From an uncultured Candidatus Saccharibacteria bacterium (lineage in GTDB: Bacteria > Patescibacteriota > Minisyncoccia > Phycocordibacterales > UBA2100), in contig CAZPQI010000001.1 in assembly GCA_964589005.1 (NCBI GenBank), positions 67,675-131,674 of the forward strand: 64,000 nucleotides of DNA, written 5' to 3'. Of this stretch, positions 6,243 through 63,210 are shown piece after piece (the stretch's first letter is position 1; every line of letters begins with the position of its first letter). The notes beneath the pieces were generated by a model. The model was not told the DNA's origin and ran no database searches. It worked only from the letters and a program-made list of their open reading frames with translations. A program made the position numbers and the translations under genes.

Positions 6243-6791
6243 CTACTGGCTAATTTCTATTTCTTTTTTCTTAAATAATTCTTCTAGCGAACTATTTCCT
6301 GTATCAATATGTTTTTGTAGTTCGTCTTTAGCGCCAAATTTTTCGTCTTCGCTCATGTCTCCTGCTTTTTCTTTTGCTTGAATATCTCCCCACGAATCTT
6401 CGCGTGCACCGCGCAAACTTTGGCGTGCGTCTTCCAATTTGTCTTTAGCAATTTTTATAAGCGAGTCGCGGCGCTCGGACGTAAGCTCAGGAAACGAAAT
6501 TCTAATCCCTTTGTCATCAACACCCACCCCAACACCAAAATTTGCGTCGTTAATTGCTTTCTCAATTTCTTTTATTTGCGAAGTGTCCCACGGAACAATG
6601 CGTAGCGTTCGTGCGTCCTCAACACCAATATTTGCCACTTGATTAAGGGGCATCCGTGAACCGTAGCTATCTACTTGAATTGAATCCAGTAGCGTTGGTG
6701 TTGCGCGCCCCGTGCGAAGTCCCTGATACTCTTTACGCAGCCATTCTTCCCCTTCAGTAATTTTTAACTGCAATTCTTTGAAATCGTACAT
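6243..6791 (-). CDS. frr: ribosome recycling factor
   Basis: 182 aa of typical Frr sequence (LRTGRATPTLLD..., VPWDTSQIKEIEKAI). Confidence 0.95.
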   Translation of the reverse strand: MYDFKELQLKITEGEEWLRKEYQGLRTGRATPTLLDSIQVDSYGSRMPLNQVANIGVEDARTLRIVPWDTSQIKEIEKAINDANFGVGVGVDDKGIRISFPELTSERRDSLIKIAKDKLEDARQSLRGAREDSWGDIQAKEKAGDMSEDEKFGAKDELQKHIDTGNSSLEELFKKKEIEISQ

Positions 6792-6863
6792 GCTGCATAG
6801 TATATAGTATTTTTAATTTTATTTACATTTATTTATATTAAACACCTTGAATACAAACACTTA

Positions 6864-6889
6864 AAGTGTATCGGTTAACCGATACACTT
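6864..6889. repeat. 26-bp perfect palindrome aagtgtatcggttaaccgatacactt (copy 1 of 2)
   Basis: Read directly from the sequence. An identical 26-mer occurs at 48616-48641. Confidence 0.85.
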
Positions 6890-6894
6890 CTCTT

Positions 6895-6944
6895 AAATAT
6901 TAAATACCCATTTTAATATATATTAAAATGGGTATTTAATATTT
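6895..6944. repeat. 50-bp perfect AT-rich palindrome
   Basis: aaatattaaatacccattttaatatatattaaaatgggtatttaatattt. Every position was checked base by base against its reverse complement. It lies in the 550-bp frr-holB intergenic region. Confidence 0.85.
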
Positions 6945-7341
6945 GAGTAAAAGAATAAAGAAAATTTGAGTGTCAGGAAACTTAAAAACAAAAAAGTGGT
7001 GTCGAAACACCACTTTTTAAGATTTTAACCAAAGTGCCGAATATTAAGTACGAAGCAAATATTTTTCGGCTTTTCGAGTCATTAAATTCAGCTTTTGTGC
7101 TGGTATTAGTGCAGCGTTTTCCTTATCCGCACGAAACACAAAGTAACGTAAACGCCACGGCCATGTCCTTGCGAGATATGGAAACTTTTTTGCCAACCAC
7201 CCCTTCGGTTTTTCCCATTGCAGATACAACTTCCTCTCATTCGAAATTGTCGAAATGCGTCTGTGTGTAGATTCGCTCATTTAATTAATCCCTCTTCGTA
7301 AGTTTCTGCTAATAAAACTATACCATTCCAAGTCAAGATAG

Positions 7342-12313: not shown

Positions 12314-12335
12314 GGGTAATTTCTAATGTAAATAT

Positions 12336-12359
12336 GTTATATCATATATGATATAACAC
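12336..12359. promoter_or_regulatory. 24-bp perfect palindrome tgttatatcatatatgatataaca in the divergent murA/priA promoter region
   Basis: Read from the sequence. It lies 23 bp upstream of the HTH-murA start on the opposite strand. Proposed as an operator candidate. Confidence 0.5.
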
Positions 12360-16654: not shown

Positions 16655-16774
16655 TACTTTCTATTATATCACGTTGAAAAAACACTTTTCTCGTGTAGAA
16701 TACGGCTCAGTTCTTTCCAAAGTTATATAGATTTTTTCGCTCCGCGGTAGCTCAGTGGTAGAGCAATCGACTGT

Positions 16775-17026
16775 CGAAGGCAGCCTTTGGTAGTAATATC
16801 AAAGTGAAGAACGAGGTGAATTGACTGGAAACCCTAACGTAAAGGCGAGGGCAATCAGCAGCCAAGCTTAATTGAAGGTTCAGAGACTATTCCGAAAGGA
16901 AGTACTATCCATTGTAATTATTTTGCAACTGGACGGGAAGCGCCTCGCATCCTAATCCGATCACGTCAGTGATTTAGGATGGATGATGATATAGTCCACC
17001 CCTTTTGGAAACAATTGGAAAAGGTG
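16775..17026 (+). mobile_element. putative group I intron (approx 252 nt) in the tRNA-Asn anticodon loop
   Basis: The 5' exon ends in U and the intron ends in G. An internal guide GCAG can pair with exon CUGU to form P1. GGAAACCCUAACG, CCAAGCUU and AGAGACUA match elements I recall from small bacterial tRNA group I introns of the Azoarcus tRNA-Ile / cyanobacterial tRNA-Leu type. A GACGGG...AUAGUCC P7-like pairing is present. The size fits that class. Confidence 0.6.
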
Positions 17027-17102: not shown

Positions 17103-17435
17103 ATGTCTACCACTAAGAAACGAAAAGAAAAACGTACGTACGCCGATCGTCGTGAGTACATGATAAAGGCAGTCGCTAAACGACGCAGAAAGTTACGAAC
17201 TATGGCTTTAGAGCATGGAGGTGGTAAGTGTACGATTTGTGGGTATAAGAAATGCACTAGAGCGCTCACTTTTCATCACCTGGATCCATCTAAGAAAAAG
17301 TTCGGATTATCTGCCAGAGGGATAACTCGCTCATGGGAAAAAACTAAAGCAGAGTTAGAAAAATGTGTTTTGCTATGTATGAACTGCCACATGGAAATAC
17401 ATGATGGAGTTACTAAAGTTCCAAAGAAAAGGTAA
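17103..17435 (+). CDS. HNH endonuclease
   Basis: 110 aa with CxxC...HHLDP...N...CxxCH, a His-Me finger. Lies immediately 3' of the intron-containing tRNA, bracketed by duplicated tRNA 3'-end sequence. Confidence 0.8.
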   Translation: MSTTKKRKEKRTYADRREYMIKAVAKRRRKLRTMALEHGGGKCTICGYKKCTRALTFHHLDPSKKKFGLSARGITRSWEKTKAELEKCVLLCMNCHMEIHDGVTKVPKKR

Positions 17436-24333: not shown

Positions 24334-24383
24334 AATGAAGAATCTTAGACTCAAAGTGCTATACTAAACGAACAATTGAATAA

Positions 24384-24526
24384 ATTATCAAGAAAGATGT
24401 GAAGGGACTAGCCTTATGACCATCTTAGCAACCTGTCTCTTCGTCCAGATAAGGTGCTCCATCTAGCCTGTATAGGAAAGATAACAATGCATCAGCATCT
24501 TACCCTTCACAGGAAAGATGTTTTTT
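24384..24526 (+). promoter_or_regulatory. SAM-I (S-box) riboswitch with terminator in the metK leader
   Basis: UUAUCAAGAAAGAUGUGAAGGGACUAGCC...GCAACC...AGAUAAGGUGCUCC...AUCUAGCC...GGAAAGAUAA matches the SAM-I consensus blocks (YUCUUAUCAAGAG..GGAGGGACUGGCC...GCAACC...AAGGUGCUAA..CCAGC..GAUAAGA). It is followed by the hairpin catctt...aagatg plus TTTTTT just before the metK start. Confidence 0.8.
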
Positions 24527-26133: not shown

Positions 26134-26167
26134 TGACACAAGTTTATCTTAAGATAAACTTGTGTCA
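26134..26167. promoter_or_regulatory. 34-bp perfect palindrome tgacacaagtttatcttaagataaacttgtgtca abutting the phd start codon; TTGACA..16..TAAACT promoter-like element inside it
   Basis: Read from the sequence and checked against its reverse complement. Operator candidate for TA autoregulation. Its geometry implies a leaderless or near-leaderless phd mRNA. Confidence 0.55.
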
Positions 26168-26436
26168 TGAATGCAAACTTAACAAAAAAAAATACCGTGG
26201 GTCTTAAAGAACTGCGCGAGAACATCGAAACATACATTAAACGTGTGAGTAAAGGCGAAGTACTCACTGTTTTTAGACGCTCTACTCCCCTTTTCAAAAT
26301 ATCCCCAGTCGACGCGGAAGAAACTGGCTGGGAAACCATAGTAGATTTCACCAAAAAAACAGGACACGGCGTCCCTGTTGAAGAACTACTAGCCTCAATG
26401 AAAAAGATGCATGGACAAAAATCAAAAGTTTCTTAA
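26167..26436 (+). CDS. Phd/YefM-family antitoxin
   Basis: VGLKELRENIETYIKRVSKGEVLTVFRRSTPLFKISP. Confidence 0.75.
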   Translation: MNANLTKKNTVGLKELRENIETYIKRVSKGEVLTVFRRSTPLFKISPVDAEETGWETIVDFTKKTGHGVPVEELLASMKKMHGQKSKVS

Positions 26437-26929: not shown

Positions 26930-26950
26930 CGCGAGACTGTCACAATAGTA

Positions 26951-26976
26951 AAAAGCACCGAGCTCGGTGCTTTTTA
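26951..26976 (+). terminator. rho-independent terminator (aaaagcaccgagctcggtgcttttt)
   Basis: Perfect GC-rich hairpin with a T-run. Confidence 0.8.
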
Positions 26977-27090
26977 CTTTGCTAAATGGCAACTATATAC
27001 TGTGTAGAAATTGTTTATGAGTATCTGAATACTTGTGCATATATTTGAACATTGCTAAAATATAATAATTAAAATTAACTAGAAAATCGT

Positions 27091-28705: not shown

Positions 28706-28875
28706 CTAGAGCATATTTGAAAACTTCATTCCGGCTCTGTTTTCACGTATTTCCCCCGACTACTCGTAAGAAAATTTTTGAAATATCTCGATATTCCTCT
28801 AACTTTCTTGCTTCGTATCGAACGAAATACGATAAAACATCCTCGAAAGCAAGTTTTCAAACAAGCTCTCACAAC

Positions 28876-28907
28876 AAAAACCCCGCGGGCTAGCCCGCGG
28901 GGTTTTT
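28876..28907. terminator. bidirectional terminator (aaaaaccccgcgggctagcccgcggggttttt)
   Basis: Perfect GC hairpin flanked by A5 and T5. Confidence 0.8.
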
Positions 28908-28966
28908 GTTTTTCTACTCCGAAGATCCACACTAGTACACACGTGCAAATACTTTATACTGTTGAG

Positions 28967-34431: not shown

Positions 34432-34534
34432 TTATTTGCCTTTCTACAAAAAATTGCCCTTAAAAAAGAGCGACTATAGTAAGTAATATATAAATACTGC
34501 ACTTAGTCAATAAAATATGCATAACCGTACATAT

Positions 34535-34565
34535 AAAAACACTCGTCAATGACGAGTGTTTTTAT
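34535..34565. terminator. bidirectional terminator (aaaaacactcgtcaatgacgagtgttttt)
   Basis: Perfect hairpin flanked by A5 and T5. Confidence 0.8.
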
Positions 34566-34579
34566 ATGTATCACTACCG

Positions 34580-34849
34580 TTATTTACGGAAGCAATCACG
34601 ACACTTCAAATTGCTAGTGTCTCGAGGTTCAAATGGTAAGCTCGTAATGGCTCCCCCACAATCAGCACAAGTCCAGTTTCCTTCGTGCATTGCACGTTCA
34701 GGACGATCAGTTTGCCCTTTCTTGTGGCAGTCTCCGCATTTAAGCGAGTCTGCTCGCGCAGGATCTGGTTCGAATGGAAGTTCTGTAATTGCACCTCCAC
34801 AACTACCACATTTCCAATCTCCAGTGAACATTTTTCTTTCTTCGTTCAT
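34580..34849 (-). CDS. tandem zinc-ribbon protein (two CxxC...CxxC repeats)
   Basis: Repeat 1 is GDWKCGSCGGAITELPFEPD...LKCGDC. Repeat 2 is GNWTCADCGGAITSLPFEPR...LKCRDC. Confidence 0.5.
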   Translation of the reverse strand: MNEERKMFTGDWKCGSCGGAITELPFEPDPARADSLKCGDCHKKGQTDRPERAMHEGNWTCADCGGAITSLPFEPRDTSNLKCRDCFRK

Positions 34850-34976
34850 TGTAAAATATTTTTTCTATTAGTACGTTTTCAGTGTCGACGCGATTAGTGC
34901 ACACAAACTGCAGGCAAATCTATTTCGAAAACCATAATAAGCCTATCACGTATGATATACTCTCGCATACAAAATT

Positions 34977-35714
34977 ATGGATAGAGAAAAACCCGCACTC
35001 GAGATAAAAAATTTACACAAAGCGTACGGCAAAACAGTTGCTGTGGACGATATTTCTCTTACACTACCGCGTGGTGCTTTTTTAGGGCTCTTGGGACCAA
35101 ACGGTGCAGGTAAATCGACTCTTATAAACTGCATTGTAGGAGTAAACAAAATAACAAGTGGTACGATTAGCACTTTTGGGTTCGATGTCGAAAAAGACTA
35201 CCGTGAATCGCGCAGAACAATTGGCATCGCCCCACAAGAATTTAATGTGGATTTTTTCGCAAAAGTTTGGAAAGTCCTCGACTATGTAGGCGGGTACTAC
35301 GGTATGCGAAAAGAAGAGAGGGCACAACGTATCGAAGAACTCCTTGACCAATTTCAACTTCAGAAACATCGCGATAAATCGTTTAACGAACTATCGGGTG
35401 GATTAAAGCGACGTGTTGTGCTCGCTCGTGCACTCATACACGACCCTGAGCTCATCATTCTAGACGAGCCAACAGCAGGGATTGATGTTGAGCTCCGCCG
35501 TGAATTATGGGGACACTTACAAGAACTTTCAAAACGAGGAAAAACCATACTCCTTACATCTCACTACCTCGACGAAGTAGAGTTGCTCGCAGACCGTTTT
35601 GCTTTTATTAGCGACGGAAAAATAGTTGCACAAGGATCAAAAGAGAAAATGCTCACAGGAGGTAAAGACTTAGAAGATTTATATCTTGAATTAACTAGTA
35701 ATAACAACGTATGA
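34977..35714 (+). CDS. ABC transporter ATP-binding protein
   Basis: Motifs GPNGAGKST, LSGGLKRR and ILDEPTAGID. Confidence 0.9.
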   Translation: MDREKPALEIKNLHKAYGKTVAVDDISLTLPRGAFLGLLGPNGAGKSTLINCIVGVNKITSGTISTFGFDVEKDYRESRRTIGIAPQEFNVDFFAKVWKVLDYVGGYYGMRKEERAQRIEELLDQFQLQKHRDKSFNELSGGLKRRVVLARALIHDPELIILDEPTAGIDVELRRELWGHLQELSKRGKTILLTSHYLDEVELLADRFAFISDGKIVAQGSKEKMLTGGKDLEDLYLELTSNNNV

Positions 35715-36472
35715 ACTGGATAGGACTCTACACACTCGTGCGCAAAGAAATGGAGCGAACATTTCGCGTGGTTATTCAGACAATTTTTAGCCCTGTTATT
35801 TCTGCCACACTATTTATATTTGTCTTTGGAACAATCGTAGGGACACGCATCGACGAAATCGGAGGCGTACCATATATCGTATTCGTATTTCCAGGAATTT
35901 TAATTATGAATGTTCTTACGTCAGCGTTCTCTCACTCTTCAAGCGCAATATATTTTGCTCGGTTTATTCGTAACATCGACGAAATGCTTGTCGCCCCTCT
36001 TTCATACTTCGAAATTATGCTGGCTAATGTCATCAGTTCTGTAACGCGCGCCATTGTCGTTGGTTTTGTTATTGTGCTTGTGGGTATTCTTTTCGGCGCT
36101 GTTCAAATGCAAAACTTCTTTCTCTTTCTCATATATATTATCGCAGTTGCTGTTGTTTTTGCACTTCTTGGTATTATTACTGGTCTTGCCGCCAAAAGTT
36201 TTGAGCAACTTAATATTTTAAGCACGTTTATAATACTTCCTTTCTCATTTTTGGGAGGAATGTTTTACACACTCGATATGTTACCCGCTGCGGCACAAAA
36301 AGTAGCCGTTCTTAATCCATTCTTTTACTTTGTTGATGGAATTCGCTACGCAATGGTAGGTATTCACGACTCCAATCTGCTTGTCGGCGCTGGACTAATG
36401 CTTGCACTCATTCTTTCGCTAGGAGCCATAGTATGGTGGATTTTCTACACTGGTTGGAGAATTCGTGAATAG
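35711..36472 (+). CDS. ABC-2 type transporter permease
   Basis: Six TM segments. Coupled to the ATPase by an ATGA overlap. Confidence 0.8.
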   Translation: MNWIGLYTLVRKEMERTFRVVIQTIFSPVISATLFIFVFGTIVGTRIDEIGGVPYIVFVFPGILIMNVLTSAFSHSSSAIYFARFIRNIDEMLVAPLSYFEIMLANVISSVTRAIVVGFVIVLVGILFGAVQMQNFFLFLIYIIAVAVVFALLGIITGLAAKSFEQLNILSTFIILPFSFLGGMFYTLDMLPAAAQKVAVLNPFFYFVDGIRYAMVGIHDSNLLVGAGLMLALILSLGAIVWWIFYTGWRIRE

Positions 36473-45682: not shown

Positions 45683-45783
45683 TAAAACTAAATGGTAACA
45701 TTGGGACTCACAAACCACAAATATTGTAAAAATAAATTACCCTCATTAGCTTGCTCTAGAGTAGTTTATTACTACGTAGTTAT

Positions 45784-46791
45784 CTACGTATTTAAATGCT
45801 GAGAAAAAGGGTGTATGCATTCTTTTAACTCATAAGCATCCCCATGTCCTAGTAAACCTAAGTACGATTGCAAAGTCTCTTGCTTTCCATCAGTTTCAGC
45901 AACCCTCTTTAACATCCTGCGTTTTGTTACACTGCGTAGCACACGATGGTTAGGAAAATGTACCCAACCTAAAAAATCTATCCCAGAAGCAAGTGTCTCA
46001 ACAGAAGTCTTTCGTTGATGTAATTCGAGCTGTAGTTTAACTTGTAAAAACCTTTCGATATATCGAAAGGTTTTTACAGGAACATTCCTATCGTGTGAAA
46101 GAAACATGAAATCGTCAGCATAACGAATATAGTATTTTGCTTTCAGTTTGTGCTTAACAAACTGGTCAAACTCATTCATATATATATTAACAAAAAGTTG
46201 CGAAGTGAGGTTACCAAGCGGTAATCCTTTTCCTTTCACCCCGGAGTTGAAGCTCCCCATAATTTCTGCCAAAAGTGCAATACTATCTTTGTCAGCGATA
46301 TGTTTCTTCAAAATATCCATTAAGATACTATGGTCAATAGAGGCAAAGAACTTTCGTATGTCGCTTTTAAATACCCATACTGTTTTCGTGTTGTTTTTGG
46401 AAACTTTGTTTGAAAAACTACGAAAACGATTCACCGCTTTGTGTGTTCCCTTATTACTTCTACAAGAATATGAGTCAGCGATGAACGTGTTGTCAAAATA
46501 TGGATAGAGTTGTCTATATAATGCGTGGTGAAGCAAGCGATCACGGACACTTGCCTTGTGAATATTTCTTGGCTTCGGGTCGGAAATATTAAAGGCTTCG
46601 TATTTGCCATGCTTGTATATTTTGTTTTTTAAATCTTGGTGTAATGAAAGTATGTTATCCATTAGATGTAATTGGAATTCCTGCACATCTTTTCGTTTTC
46701 TTTTACCATTGAGAAATTCCTTCCACGCACCAAGAAGATTTTCTACTGAGATGATATCATTGTATGTATGAGAAAATCTCAACATCAGCAT
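45784..46791 (-). CDS. reverse transcriptase, DGR-type
   Basis: YIRYADDFMF is the YADD catalytic motif. GLPLGNLTSQLFVNIYMNEFD carries the DGR-specific [I/L]GxxxSQ motif 4. The N-terminus is FENLLGAWKEFLNGKRKRKDV. No maturase/X or En domain, 336 aa. The start is at ATG (MLMLRF); the tracked ORF uses an upstream TTG through a G10 run. Confidence 0.9.
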   Translation of the reverse strand: MLMLRFSHTYNDIISVENLLGAWKEFLNGKRKRKDVQEFQLHLMDNILSLHQDLKNKIYKHGKYEAFNISDPKPRNIHKASVRDRLLHHALYRQLYPYFDNTFIADSYSCRSNKGTHKAVNRFRSFSNKVSKNNTKTVWVFKSDIRKFFASIDHSILMDILKKHIADKDSIALLAEIMGSFNSGVKGKGLPLGNLTSQLFVNIYMNEFDQFVKHKLKAKYYIRYADDFMFLSHDRNVPVKTFRYIERFLQVKLQLELHQRKTSVETLASGIDFLGWVHFPNHRVLRSVTKRRMLKRVAETDGKQETLQSYLGLLGHGDAYELKECIHPFSQHLNT

Positions 46792-46798
46792 AATACTA

Positions 46799-46808
46799 CC
46801 CCCCCCCC
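46799..46808. repeat. C10/G10 homopolymer in the 35-bp gap between the RT and avd start codons
   Basis: Read from the sequence. This is the only long G/C homopolymer noticed in the window. Confidence 0.8.
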
Positions 46809-46826
46809 GCAACTACTCAACCTAAG

Positions 46827-47180
46827 TTGATACCAGTGGTTTTAAGATTGAAGGATGTGTACGGTATATGGCAAGCATATCTTATACACTTCCCGAAACA
46901 AAATCGCTATACTCTTGGCTCAAAAATTGACGAAGTATTCTTGCTCGCTATAGAATATTGTTTCCTAGCTAGTTACGCCCCAAAAGATACTAAAATTATT
47001 CACCTCAACCGCTGTATATCGCGAGTTGACCTTCTTAAGTTACTTTTACAATTATCTTGGGAAATACAAGCACTGGACACTAAAAAATATACGGTACTTA
47101 GTGAACAACTACAGGAAGTAGGCAGAATGCTTGGCGGGTGGAGAAAGGGGTTGGAAGTTAAAAACTCCCCACAAAAGTGA
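46827..47180 (+). CDS. avd: Avd-like accessory variability determinant (four-helix-bundle, 23S rRNA-IVS protein family)
   Basis: 117 aa. YGIWQAYLIHFPKQNRYTLG..., the central LLKLLLQLSWEI, and the C-terminal EVGRMLGGWRKG line up with Bordetella bAvd (EVGRILGSWIARVNRKG). Initiates at TTG. It is encoded on the strand opposite to the RT, TR and target. Confidence 0.7.
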   Translation: MIPVVLRLKDVYGIWQAYLIHFPKQNRYTLGSKIDEVFLLAIEYCFLASYAPKDTKIIHLNRCISRVDLLKLLLQLSWEIQALDTKKYTVLSEQLQEVGRMLGGWRKGLEVKNSPQK

Positions 47181-47193
47181 GGAGAAAATGATG

Positions 47194-47309
47194 TGTTGCT
47201 TGACCACCAAGCGATGGCGAGAGTCCGCATTCCAGACGTTGTCATTGTCAAAGCGGTTCACGTTGACCTTGAGCTTACCAGCATTCACATTGACGTTAGC
47301 GACAAACAG
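47194..47309 (-). repeat. DGR template repeat (TR)
   Basis: The minus-strand reading frame is LFVANVNVNAGKLKVNVNRFDNDNVWNADSRHRLVVKQ, with 8 AAC/AAT codons. It is 100% identical to the VR except at 10 adenines. Confidence 0.85.
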
Positions 47310-47638
47310 AGACGATATGTGAAGTGTGCCATCCATACCACCAACATTTGATAGCGAATTAACAAATATTTGTATTTTATGCGAGACCTAAAAGTCTTCA
47401 GAGAACACCTCACCAACAAACTATTTTTTTAAAAGAAATAACGTAACCATGCTCCAATCAGTCGTAACTTTATGAACTCTAAACTACGTCTTCCTACACA
47501 CAAACTTCCAAAGCCGTGACCGTTGAAATATTATCTGTGGCTTCCTTAGTATACAAAAGAAATCCCTCGGGCGCCCATAAAAAATGAGAGCGTCCGAGGG
47601 ACTAAGGTTCAAAGGGTCAAAGACCAAAGTGCAAAGAA

Positions 47639-48295
47639 TCAAACAGTCTGTTGCTTGACCACCAAGCGATGGCGAGAGTCCGCACGCCAGACGTAGCCAT
47701 AGTCAAAGCGGTCCACGTAGACCTTGAGCTTACCAGCACTCACATCGACGTAAGCGACAAACAGTTCATCATTTACTTCAAACAAAAAGAAGGTGCCATA
47801 TCCTTCTTGCCGGAGCAAGTCGCGATGCGAGCGGCAAAACTCTTTTATCTGTCCCTGGGTGAGACAGAACTTGTGTGGGTCGCCGAGTGAGCTAAACAGC
47901 GTTTGATAGTTACCGTCGTGTGTCATTTCGTACACGTCAACGGCTGTTTTTTCGGTGTCTTCGCCGGGGACGTTCGTGCTCCAGTTTTTGAAGTCACTGT
48001 CAACCCATCCGTTGAAGACGTCGTTGGCTTTAGCGAGTGTGACCGCGCCCTTCGCGAAAGCGATGGTGGTACTTTCAAGATAATGGAGGTAATCGTTGTC
48101 CTTGGTAGGGGCGATGGCCTCTAAAAATGCCTCGATACCACATTCCATTGCTTCGGCTCCAGCCTGAGTGCCAAGACGATGAATCGCCTCATCACTTATT
48201 CCGTGTTCACGGAGTCCGTTGATAACCCCACCTGCAAACTGAACGAGCCAACCTGCACCAGAGATAATCTCGTGTGGTTTATTTTTGCTAGACAT
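47639..48295 (-). CDS. DGR target protein (218 aa) with C-terminal variable region
   Basis: No signal peptide (MSSKNKPHEIISGAG...). The last 41 residues (LFVAYVDVSAGKLKVYVDRFDYGYVWRADSRHRLVVKQQTV) are encoded by the VR. Confidence 0.8.
   Translation of the reverse strand: MSSKNKPHEIISGAGWLVQFAGGVINGLREHGISDEAIHRLGTQAGAEAMECGIEAFLEAIAPTKDNDYLHYLESTTIAFAKGAVTLAKANDVFNGWVDSDFKNWSTNVPGEDTEKTAVDVYEMTHDGNYQTLFSSLGDPHKFCLTQGQIKEFCRSHRDLLRQEGYGTFFLFEVNDELFVAYVDVSAGKLKVYVDRFDYGYVWRADSRHRLVVKQQTV
47649..47764 (-). repeat. DGR variable repeat (VR)
   Basis: Aligned to the TR, the substitutions are N>Y, N>D, N>S, N>Y, N>D, N>Y, D>G, N>Y and N>R (the last being 2 nt). Every changed nucleotide is A in the TR. 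Confidence 0.85.
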
Positions 48296-48615
48296 TTTAG
48301 TCCTTCCTATGGTTCAAATCTCATTCAGAACGTGTGTCCCAAACCTCATTCTCACCAATTTAAGTTGAAAAATACTACGCCACAATGGTCATAGCTACAA
48401 ATCACCTAAACTTAGGTACCTTGTAGCTATAACCAACAAAATCTCTTATGTAAAGAACTATGCGTATACTATACCACATTTTATAGAGTACGCAAGTTCG
48501 CAAGTCCTGAAAGACAGGTAGAAATACACAGGATGCACAAAAAAACTGTTTCGTAGTTACGTAGCGAATCCAGTGTTGGGTATACTGTATGAAGCTTCAA
48601 ATTCATACTAGATCA

Positions 48616-48641
48616 AAGTGTATCGGTTAACCGATACACTT
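48616..48641. repeat. 26-bp perfect palindrome aagtgtatcggttaaccgatacactt (copy 2 of 2), flanked by a 7-bp direct repeat actagat
   Basis: Identical to 6864-6889. actagat lies at 48607-48613 and at 48646-48652. Confidence 0.85.
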
Positions 48642-48669
48642 ATGCACTAGATTTTAAGATTAATTTTAG

Positions 48670-48707
48670 AAATAATACCGCACTTGTTAATAAGTGCGGT
48701 ATTATTT
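48670..48707. repeat. 38-bp near-perfect AT-rich palindrome (aaataataccgcactt gttaat aagtgcggtattattt)
   Basis: 15-bp arms. Lies directly after palindrome copy 2, mirroring the arrangement at 6864-6944. Confidence 0.75.
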
Positions 48708-48779
48708 AAGCTAGCAGCTCCAAGCTCACGACTACTTTCCCAAGGCGAGCAAGAGTGCTGCTAGTTCGAGGAGTATAAG

Positions 48780-48827
48780 AAAACTACTTCGAGATGTACG
48801 TCTTTGGTACTTCTCGAAGTAGTTTTT
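48780..48827. terminator. rpoD terminator: 15-bp-stem hairpin (aaaactacttcgaga...tctcgaagtagtttt) flanked by A and T runs
   Basis: Lies 40 bp downstream of the rpoD stop on the minus strand. Symmetric, so it could act bidirectionally. Confidence 0.7.
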
Positions 48828-48867
48828 GTAAATGCGACAAAGAAATAGTAGTGCTGTTGCTCGCCGA

Positions 48868-59396: not shown

Positions 59397-59588
59397 AAAA
59401 ACACATGTCGTTGTGTCTGGGTGAATGTTTTTATTCTAAAAACCCAAAACAGACAGTTAACTGTCTGTTTATTCAAAATGCCCTAGGAGCCTCCTAGGGC
59501 ATTTTGATTCCTCCCAATCTTCAACCTGCCTGCCGGCAAGGCAGGTAATTATACGTTTACATTTTTCGTCGATGGTGGATTGGAGTTT
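59397..59588. repeat. R-family intergenic repeat copy 1 (about 192 bp) with three hairpins H1-H3
   Basis: Near-identical to 62099-62292. H1 is aaacagacagttaactgtctgttt at 59447-59470. H2 is aaaatgccctaggagcctcctagggcatttt at 59475-59505, a terminator-like hairpin flanked by an A-run and a T-run. H3 is a GC-rich hairpin at 59524-59546. The repeat abuts the pepE stop. Confidence 0.85.
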
Positions 59589-61074: not shown

Positions 61075-61992
61075 TTAGGCAATAATATTAAGTTTTTTCT
61101 CTTGTATACCTAACTTGATATATGTCCAAGCAGCTTCCGACGTTTGCCGATTAACAGAACCTCTTGCCGCGTCTTGCACAGTGGCGAACACAGAACCGCA
61201 ACTCTGTGTAGCAATTTCGTGCAGTTTCTTCCACGTCACTTCGTCCATTTCCATTGGACGGTGAGGGTCTGTAAGCATATTAAGACTCTCCGCTTGACAA
61301 ATCATTAATAAAACATTTGCCCGAGCATCCCCACAGACACGTAGTACCGATTCAACTATATGTGGATCAAGTAGCGAAGAAGATTTTAACGTAAGCGTTT
61401 CAAGCCCGTTACTCTTTGTTGGCTTCCACACCCAACGAACAAAAGACTCCCAAAAAGCAAACGTGACCGAAACGGCATGATCACTTCCAGAATTCTTCCA
61501 AGCTGGGCGCGGGATATTATAAGAACGTTCAGTTGGATCAAAAAACCACAGTAACTTTTCTAACAAAACAACACCGTAAGCGCCAGACTTTAAGAAGAGT
61601 TTCTCAAAATCATTACTGTGATTACACCCTTTGAAAAAATTTCTAGCAAGAGCGCGGTGTGCCTTTTTTACGACTGCTTGCAACGATTCGTGTTGTTCGC
61701 GAAGTCGAGAGTCCAGTCGACTGGATACACCAAACACGTCGTAGCCATTAGCAAGATCCAAGTAACGAATTATGCAATCAATTTCCAAATCACGTTTCTT
61801 ATCCCAATCGCTACCACTGAGCGTATTCATATCAAATCCTATATGGACTAATTCACTCACTTGCCATAGTGGAACCGGTTTTTGCAAAAGAACTTCATCC
61901 AAAGTTTCCCTCCACTGAGAGTACGTACATAGATGGCGGATATCACACCCATTAAGAGGATGTCCATCTTGAAGAATATTCGTATCTGCCAT
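61075..61992 (-). CDS. hypothetical protein (about 306 aa)
   Basis: The start is taken at MADTNIL, preceded by AAGGGAA. No motif recognised. Confidence 0.35.
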   Translation of the reverse strand: MADTNILQDGHPLNGCDIRHLCTYSQWRETLDEVLLQKPVPLWQVSELVHIGFDMNTLSGSDWDKKRDLEIDCIIRYLDLANGYDVFGVSSRLDSRLREQHESLQAVVKKAHRALARNFFKGCNHSNDFEKLFLKSGAYGVVLLEKLLWFFDPTERSYNIPRPAWKNSGSDHAVSVTFAFWESFVRWVWKPTKSNGLETLTLKSSSLLDPHIVESVLRVCGDARANVLLMICQAESLNMLTDPHRPMEMDEVTWKKLHEIATQSCGSVFATVQDAARGSVNRQTSEAAWTYIKLGIQEKKLNIIA

Positions 61993-62098: not shown

Positions 62099-62292
62099 AA
62101 AAACACATGTCGTTGTGTCTGGGTGAATGTTTTTATTCTAAAAACCCAAAACAGACAGTTAACTGTCTGTTTATTCAAAATGCCCTAGGAGCCTCCTAGG
62201 GCATTTTGATTCCTCCCAATCTTCAACCTGCCTGCGCAGGCAGGTAATTATACGTTTACGTTTTTCGTCGATGGTGAGTTGAGGGTATTTTG
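62099..62292. repeat. R-family intergenic repeat copy 2
   Basis: Identical to copy 1 through H1 and H2. H3 is a perfect 20-bp palindrome acctgcctgcgcaggcaggt here. Abuts the doc stop. Confidence 0.85.
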
Positions 62293-62925: not shown

Positions 62926-63022
62926 TTCAAAATGCCCTAGGAGCCTCCTAGGGCATTTTGACATCTTTCAATCTTCAATAATTATACGTGTACGTTTTTC
63001 GTCGATGGTGAGCTGGGGTTTT
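62926..63022. repeat. R-family repeat copy 3 (partial: H2 plus the 3' tail, H3 deleted)
   Basis: Carries aaaatgccctaggagcctcctagggcatttt and ...attatacgtgtacgtttttcgtcgatggtgag. Confidence 0.8.
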
Positions 63023-63210
63023 TAACTTCTAAATATTCTGTGCCAAAACAAAAACCTTGCGATTAATCGCAAGGTTTTTGTTTTCATATTACCCAAGAGG
63101 GATCTCTTAAACTCATATACCAGATGTTAATTGACTCATCGCTTAAAACGCGTCATCATCCTGCCAGAACAAAACAAATTGAAAACCAACTCATATGGAG
63201 GATATATATC

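Follow-up and report, generated by a model that had tools for sequence, protein, structure and literature searches.

The window, by which we mean the whole 64,000-nucleotide stretch of DNA analysed here, carries two exact copies of a perfect 26-bp palindrome, AAGTGTATCGGTTAACCGATACACTT, which we call P26. One copy is located at positions 6864-6889 and the other at 48616-48641, and near-identical JGI contigs span both sites. By the homologues of its Frr and RpoD proteins, the window belongs to Candidatus Kaiserbacteria (Patescibacteria/CPR).

Copy 1 is situated between holB and frr. Read along the minus strand, the order of features is holB, a promoter, the orphan reading frame orf78, a terminator, a 50-bp palindrome, P26, AT-rich DNA (about 72-73 bp up to the frr start codon) and frr. 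In five loci of relatives, whose Frr is 79-86% identical, the holB stop codon and the frr start codon are only 28-35 bp apart, and we thus regard a stretch of about 520-540 bp (6805-7341, minus strand), reaching from the holB stop to the frr -10 box, as an insertion specific to the lineage of the window. Within this insertion lie orf78 with its terminator, the 50-bp palindrome and the first copy of P26. Terminal inverted repeats at its ends are unconvincing, with 11 of 16 bases matching by eye in AT-rich DNA. The promoter motif of frr, TATACT-N7/8-ATG, is kept across the relatives and suggests that the frr transcript may be leaderless. The reading frame orf78 (7044-7280, minus strand; 78 aa) has a strong promoter of its own, TTGACT-17-TGgTATAGT, at 7345-7317, and is followed by a canonical bidirectional intrinsic terminator (6991-7018, minus strand) composed of an A-run, a 12-bp stem and a T-run. 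Among 5.8 billion proteins no homologue of orf78 other than itself was found; it matched no family, and its AlphaFold structure model is of low confidence (pLDDT 58.7). The assumption that orf78 encodes a P26-binding protein finds no support in any of these results and was abandoned.

Copy 2 lies in a variable region between rpoD and pyrB (45719-48867, minus strand), which has no homology to relatives and also holds a diversity-generating retroelement (DGR). Homology ends at the rpoD stop codon and restarts in pyrB. In the relatives, rpoD is followed by a canonical terminator and then by a convergent gene, either for a GNAT acetyltransferase or a cold-shock gene; in one of them (L035) the GNAT acetyltransferase occupies the place that the DGR has in the window. 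Here, the minus-strand order is rpoD, a nested hairpin structure, a hairpin at 48707-48670, P26, another hairpin and the DGR target gene. P26 is placed 227 bp after the rpoD stop and 320-321 bp before the start of the target gene, both genes being on the minus strand, and is surrounded by an array of five hairpins. This array includes the one at 48587-48608 and a long hairpin 3' of rpoD (48780-48826, minus strand), itself enclosed by a further outer stem, GGCGAGCAA...TTGCTCGCC.

The assignment of 45784-48295 as a complete DGR is clear-cut. It comprises the RT gene (45784-46812, minus strand), bAvd (46827-47180, plus strand), the TR (47194-47309) and the VR (47649-47764), the latter at the 3' end of the target gene (47639-48295, minus strand), whose 218-aa product matches no family. 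All 10 differences between TR and VR (10/10) fall on TR adenines. P26 was considered as a component of the DGR and rejected, as it stands on the 5' side of the target gene and not at the VR end, and is absent from nine related DGR loci in IMG/VR.

Both copies of P26 are therefore found in DNA missing from close relatives, namely the holB-frr insertion and the rpoD-pyrB variable region. The preliminary description of this DNA had proposed a comparison with related genomes, in order to learn whether the sites lie at insertion points. They do lie in lineage-specific inserted DNA, and it is whole segments that are missing from the relatives, not P26 alone.

The identity of a 26-mer at two distant loci, on which that description was built, is exact, and 100 sequence shuffles gave 0 matches to P26, so that the chance expectation is none. 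Even when up to 3 mismatches are allowed, the window yields no third copy, and the 16.8 kb of the source genome flanking it (2 x 8.4 kb) have no extra one, which makes a total of two copies in the 81 kb of the source genome examined. The identity of the two loci spans 27 nt (6863-6889 and 48615-48641) and then ends; alignment of both loci revealed no homology beyond it. As the flanks are unrelated while the copies are exactly identical, there seems to be a constraint on the sequence itself that goes beyond the formation of a hairpin. P26 reads A-AGTGTA-TCGGTTAACCGA-TACACT-T, and its inner 24 bp, AGTGTATCGGTTAACCGATACACT, form a perfect palindrome of the type AGTGTA-N12-TACACT. We regard P26 as a modest candidate for a protein-binding site and, most likely, as an ordinary kind of element in an unusual lineage, a palindrome to which a repressor would bind.

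We searched for P26 in the genomes of 185,579 species (one per species), and also in viral contigs, plasmids and phages. Its 22-mer core had no exact match in the species genomes, and the 18-mer core had none in the viral contigs, plasmids and phages; in the fetched loci of relatives, no P26 was found at up to 8 mismatches. The 18-mer core did occur 21 times among the species genomes, in no case (0/21) as part of the 22-mer, and 5 of these 21 matches are in Patescibacteria. One is carried by L011, the closest sequenced relative of the window, which belongs to the same assembly as L029; another, in a Kaiserbacterium (L002), is identical to P26 except for a symmetric G>A/C>T change. In L015, L021 and L005/L013, on the other hand, the 18-mer is part of plain terminator stems. 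Since this clade abounds in perfect palindromes with a GTTAAC apex, a handful of exact 18-mer matches is, by our estimate, to be expected by chance. As about as many as were found were estimated to arise in this way, we rejected a conserved P26 family in Patescibacteria as unproven. The L011 site is a 30-bp perfect palindrome with the 18-mer core (6323-6352). A HigB/ParE-like toxin gene precedes it at a distance of 8 nt, and at 51 nt it is followed by a gene for a 123-aa protein with a hydrophobic N-terminal segment and a winged helix of the DeoR/GntR-like type.

Outside the source genome, the 22-mer core was present in one metagenome contig only (L022). Its G+C content, 53% outside an AT-rich end, and the PEP carboxykinase that it encodes indicate an organism other than that of the window. 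P26 occurs twice in this contig, 50 bp apart from centre to centre (26/26 and 25/26 bases identical), in an AT-rich region with promoter-like flanks, and the L022 site shares 11 of 15 further bases with the window on one side. The pair forms the centre of a large imperfect inverted repeat (L022 30-450) with iteron-like GTGAAGC/GCTTCAC repeats. In the same interval a small hairpin occurs three times; its loop, CTTGATATTACTGG, is conserved, and its stem shows compensatory changes.

The location of both copies in inserted DNA and the presence of two copies in L022 make mobility a rival explanation that has to be considered. According to it, P26 would be a tiny mobile or recombination palindrome, a hairpin or cruciform for a recombinase, transposase or nuclease, which travels with or borders accessory cassettes and is exchanged between unrelated bacteria. 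This would fit with the complete identity of the copies and their sharp edges, as well as with L022, where both copies lie within a large inverted repeat in a GC-rich organism of another kind. Moreover, copy 2 is flanked by a 7-bp direct repeat, ACTAGAT (p of about 0.01); however, the three other copies (copy 1 and the two in the foreign contig) have no such repeat around them. It also agrees with mobility that the genome contains a separate repeat, a module of about 190 bp with 3-4 hairpins located just 3' of minus-strand genes including Fic (59397-59582, 62099-62281 and 62926-63015). Two of its copies are 100% identical over 137 nt and the third is partial, and it looks like a recently copied intergenic repeat. 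P26, however, is present only twice in 81 kb, its 22-mer core has no exact match in the species genomes and not even its 18-mer core matches the viral contigs, plasmids or phages, related DGR cassettes do without it, and among the ORFs that we read no transposase or recombinase was noticed adjoining either site. We also know of no mechanism that would mobilise a lone 26-bp unit. The tests proposed in the preliminary description speak against the mobile palindromic module that it suggested, with the 22-mer core in 0 of 185,579 species genomes, no P26 in the fetched loci of relatives and two copies in 81 kb. We therefore consider a mobile or recombination palindrome rather unlikely.

P26 was also compared with known elements of this kind. 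REP and BIME elements are short extragenic palindromes at unrelated intergenic sites, often 3' of genes and near other hairpins; REPs are imperfect palindromes, present in tens to hundreds of copies and paired with a RAYT transposase. P26 resembles them in being a short intergenic palindrome repeated at unrelated sites near other hairpins. It differs in being perfect and in having two copies, no RAYT or IS200/IS605 TnpA transposase was noticed among the ORFs read, and the many dispersed copies that characterise REPs and MITEs are not seen (two in 81 kb and none in the relatives' loci). The attC sites of integrons are imperfect palindromes of 57-141 bp with extrahelical bases, located at the 3' end of a cassette with an integrase nearby, whereas P26 is perfect, 26 bp long and has no integrase that we noticed adjoining it. 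P26 was also compared with parS, and no match to the canonical site was found. A more far-reaching idea, to which we give only a slight chance, is that P26 might be a portable protein-recognition palindrome which has passed between a CPR bacterium and an unrelated bacterium of high G+C content, perhaps the host of the former, and which marks where accessory cassettes (an orphan-gene cassette, a DGR) are captured next to core genes. If this were true, P26 would be a minimal recombination or insertion site of a kind undescribed in Patescibacteria.

Each copy of P26 has a second palindrome in its vicinity. At site 1, this is a perfect AT-rich palindrome of 50 bp (6895-6944), with 25-nt arms and no spacer, which starts 5 nt after P26, extends to 56 bp with one mismatch (6892-6947) and contains -10-like hexamers (TAAAAT, TAATAT) in both directions. 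At site 2, a hairpin with a 16-bp perfect stem and a 6-nt loop (48670-48707; alternatively 19-nt arms with 95% complementarity) starts 28 nt after P26. The perfect 50-bp palindrome at copy 1 and a second, different long palindrome within about 30 bp at both sites had been described before, and both are there. What had been read from them, namely a conserved arrangement of two palindromes, holds only in so far as each site has a partner. The intergenic DNA of the window, about 10 kb, contains 23 hairpins whose perfect stems are 10 bp or longer. For an intergenic position picked at random, the probability that another such hairpin lies within 35 bp is 11%, which gives about 1% for both sites together. 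With hairpins this dense, the pairing of P26 with a partner is mildly non-random at most. Alignment revealed no sequence relation between the two partners, and we thus rejected the idea that the second palindromes are part of a conserved module.

A further reading is that P26 has no function at all. In 19 of the 23 intergenic hairpins there are 0-1 nt between the arms, which makes them palindromic through the loop (for example 26947-26978, 28873-28910, 46043-46078 and 63045-63084, the apex often being TTAA or CTAG), and this is far more common than loop sequences would give by chance. Termination does not require self-complementary loops, and the loop-less hairpins therefore hint at a DNA-level process, possibly template switching, or at an unusual tolerance of long perfect palindromes. 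P26 might then be a functionless by-product of a process that perfects inverted repeats, duplicated by chance or by gene conversion, and its occurrence in the foreign contig a coincidence; as a rough estimate of our own, the probability that a given 26-bp palindrome recurs in a very large metagenome collection may be of the order of 0.01-0.1. Yet two identical 26-mers among the approximately 20 palindromes of the window are not a matter of chance, and L022 carries the site twice, with 11 of 15 further bases in common on one side. A functionless P26 thus appears to us highly improbable.

Another explanation is that P26 acts as an RNA hairpin only, whether as an additional terminator, as a stem-loop for processing or stabilisation, or by blocking 3'-exonucleases in the arrays after orf78 and rpoD, and that its duplication has no sequence-specific meaning. 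Both copies are in fact in the 3' zones of minus-strand units, among 3-5 strong hairpins (z = -8.1 and -9.1), and a terminator scan flagged copy 1 on the minus strand. Six perfect palindromes of the window have the GTTAAC apex, most terminators of the window are perfect palindromes, and the 18-mer forms obvious terminator stems in L021 and L015. The stem of P26 would form as well. Nevertheless, its tail at site 1 is poor and at best marginal (AAGTGTTTGT), while at site 2 a U-tract is absent and the scan was negative; moreover, canonical terminators precede both copies. The earlier view that P26 is not a chance terminator is reasonable in the light of these results, as neither copy has a proper U-tract. 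P26 can also be set beside the bidirectional terminators of the same genome (28873-28910, 63045-63084). All of them are perfect, spacer-less, intergenic palindromes, and those terminators often have a TTAA or CTAG apex; however, they have G+C-rich stems flanked by an A-run and a T-run, which P26 lacks. Each terminator sequence is also unique, except for the hairpins of the repeat module at 59-63 kb, whereas P26 is duplicated exactly. Structure alone would leave both the 26/26 identity and the two copies in L022 unexplained, and we find it doubtful that P26 is an RNA hairpin and nothing else. As to known RNA families, neither scanning the window at the gathering threshold nor scanning both loci by E-value returned anything for P26 beyond generic hairpin noise.

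Several other features of the window deserve to be mentioned at this point. A group I intron (77.9 bits) is located at 16725-17018, without a recognised host gene or tRNA call, and an HNH-like ORF (17103-17435) is found just downstream. A SAM riboswitch (24382-24487) precedes a metK-like gene. A strain-level length polymorphism was seen at 61354-61415 (62 nt), which corresponds to 43 nt (1607-1649) in L048, a JGI contig otherwise 100% identical to the window.

If the sequence of P26 itself matters, it is plausible to look for a protein that could recognise it, and the best resemblance that we found is to the operators of YtrA-type regulators. YtrA of B. subtilis binds AGTGTA-13bp-TACACT at exactly two loci (PMC8060467), and bacterial YtrA motifs are typically 24 bp long with distant half-sites (PMC6746942). 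According to another report, the YtrA subfamily has conserved GT and AC far from the dyad, and its genes are usually in operons with ABC transporters, the operators almost always lying in front of their own ytrA-ABC operon (PMC4494728). P26 and the B. subtilis box, whose likeness was recognised post hoc, have the same hexamer half-sites in a long palindrome (24-25 bp) with GT and AC far from the dyad, and in both organisms two loci carry the same inverted repeat. In form P26 corresponds to an operator of the YtrA class, being a palindrome about 24 bp long whose half-sites are separated by about two turns of the helix. The spacer, on the other hand, is 12 bp in P26 and 13 bp in the B. subtilis box. 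Unlike that box, the P26 copies have no adjoining ytrA gene or cognate ABC operon, and neither is in the position of an autoregulatory promoter, the neighbours being orf78 and frr in one case and rpoD and the DGR target gene in the other.

A second resemblance comes from Latescibacterota, in which a 32-bp perfect palindrome, TAT(C/T)ACTGTATCGGTTAACCGATACAGT(G/A)ATA, with a symmetric C/T...G/A change between species, is present in four genomes (L006 6727-6758, L007 5393-5424, L008 345-376 and L012 1621-1652). In all four, the palindrome comes immediately after the -10 box of a TTGACT-17-TATTAT promoter, and downstream of this promoter are a 126-aa GntR gene and then genes for an ABC-transporter ATPase and permease. 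The best family match of the GntR protein is a full-length one to PmtR, a short YtrA-type regulator (2.8e-20). This palindrome is a clean candidate for a YtrA operator. The central 20 bp of P26, TGTATCGGTTAACCGATACA, are identical in it, and both palindromes are perfect with distal GTA/TAC; however, the outer bases differ (CAC/TAC vs AAG), and P26 has no such neighbours as the strong -10 box and the GntR gene which the Latescibacterota palindrome adjoins. The 20-bp identity, which came from an exact-match search, could be coincidental, since palindromes with a GTTAAC apex are common and the 18-mer matches are at chance level.

From what is observed for P26, namely its sequence, exact duplication, form, match to the YtrA class and lineage-specific location, we infer that it may be a symmetric site for a dimeric protein, and more specifically the operator of a winged-helix repressor of the GntR/YtrA type or of one with the same geometry. 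We hold this reading tentatively, at somewhat less than even chances. What speaks for it is that the exact identity does not extend beyond the palindrome, that U-tracts are lacking, that L022 has a tandem pair and that the form is that of the YtrA class. Of the three possibilities raised in the preliminary description (a mobile module, a recombination site or an operator), the operator is the best supported, while the mobile module is not borne out. In the proposed scenario, each recognition helix of the dimer would read one of the distal half-sites, AGTGTA or TACACT, which are separated by about two helical turns. A bound repressor would stop transcription initiated in the AT-rich hairpin located just upstream on the minus strand; at site 1 this transcription would otherwise enter frr-rseP-proS, and at site 2 it would head for the DGR target gene.

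The promoters that such a repressor might control are of unequal quality. On the minus strand, an AT-rich hairpin with -10-like hexamers is located immediately upstream of each P26 copy. At site 2, a minus-strand promoter-like sequence, TTAACA-16-TAAAAT (48690-48663), overlaps the hairpin and ends 21 nt before P26, which would put copy 2 at about +15 to +40; upstream of copy 1, there are only weak -10-like hexamers. With regard to the best promoters downstream, copy 1 is at about -85, counted from the frr start, and copy 2 at about -167, counted from the promoter predicted for the DGR target gene. A geometry common to both sites, TAAAAT-N20/21-P26, was noticed and judged to be post hoc and not significant, and so was a -35-like TTAACC in the P26 dyad with TAT-hexamers 16-17 nt away.

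Against an operator we count the weak upstream promoters and the differing promoter distances, the absence of P26 in relatives, the spacer of 12 instead of 13, the fact that the 18-mer elsewhere is an ordinary terminator stem, and the lack of an adjoining GntR gene. As for the last point, a tblastn search of the window with the Latescibacterota YtrA returned no GntR/YtrA gene, Pfam and NCBIfam scans of selected window ORFs gave no match to the GntR family, and no YtrA homologue was noticed in the flanking 16.8 kb, hence none in the 81 kb inspected. The ABC transporter of the window (34977-36472) has no P26-like site. Upstream of this transporter there is a stretch of about 545 bp (34432-34976) with no convincing ORF, which begins with a 43-bp perfect palindrome (34528-34570); no Rfam match for this stretch reached the gathering threshold.

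That palindromes of this genome may serve as operators is made more plausible by two others in classic operator positions, which we count in favour of the operator reading of P26. The first, TGTTATATCATATATGATATAACA (12335-12358), lies between the divergent priA gene and a gene for an HTH_3-EPSP-synthase fusion. It has counterparts, with variation, in relatives (L029 3156-3183, L030 1795-1822, L025 5484-5501 and L031 5765-5782), and given this conservation it is likely the autoregulatory operator of the HTH fusion protein. The second, a 34-bp perfect palindrome (26134-26167), ends on the first base of a phd-family antitoxin gene (26167-26436) and is probably the operator of that gene.

What P26 means for the organism depends on which of these readings is right. 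If it is merely a hairpin, little follows. If it is a mobile or recombination site shared with a second phylum, it would be relevant to the way in which accessory DNA gets into reduced genomes. To our knowledge, transcription factors that can be recognised as such are very scarce in Patescibacteria, and hardly any regulatory sites have been mapped there. Should P26 prove to be a real operator, the ribosome-recycling operon and the DGR target gene would be joined in one small regulon, and a concrete bait would be at hand for the discovery of a regulator in this uncultured lineage.
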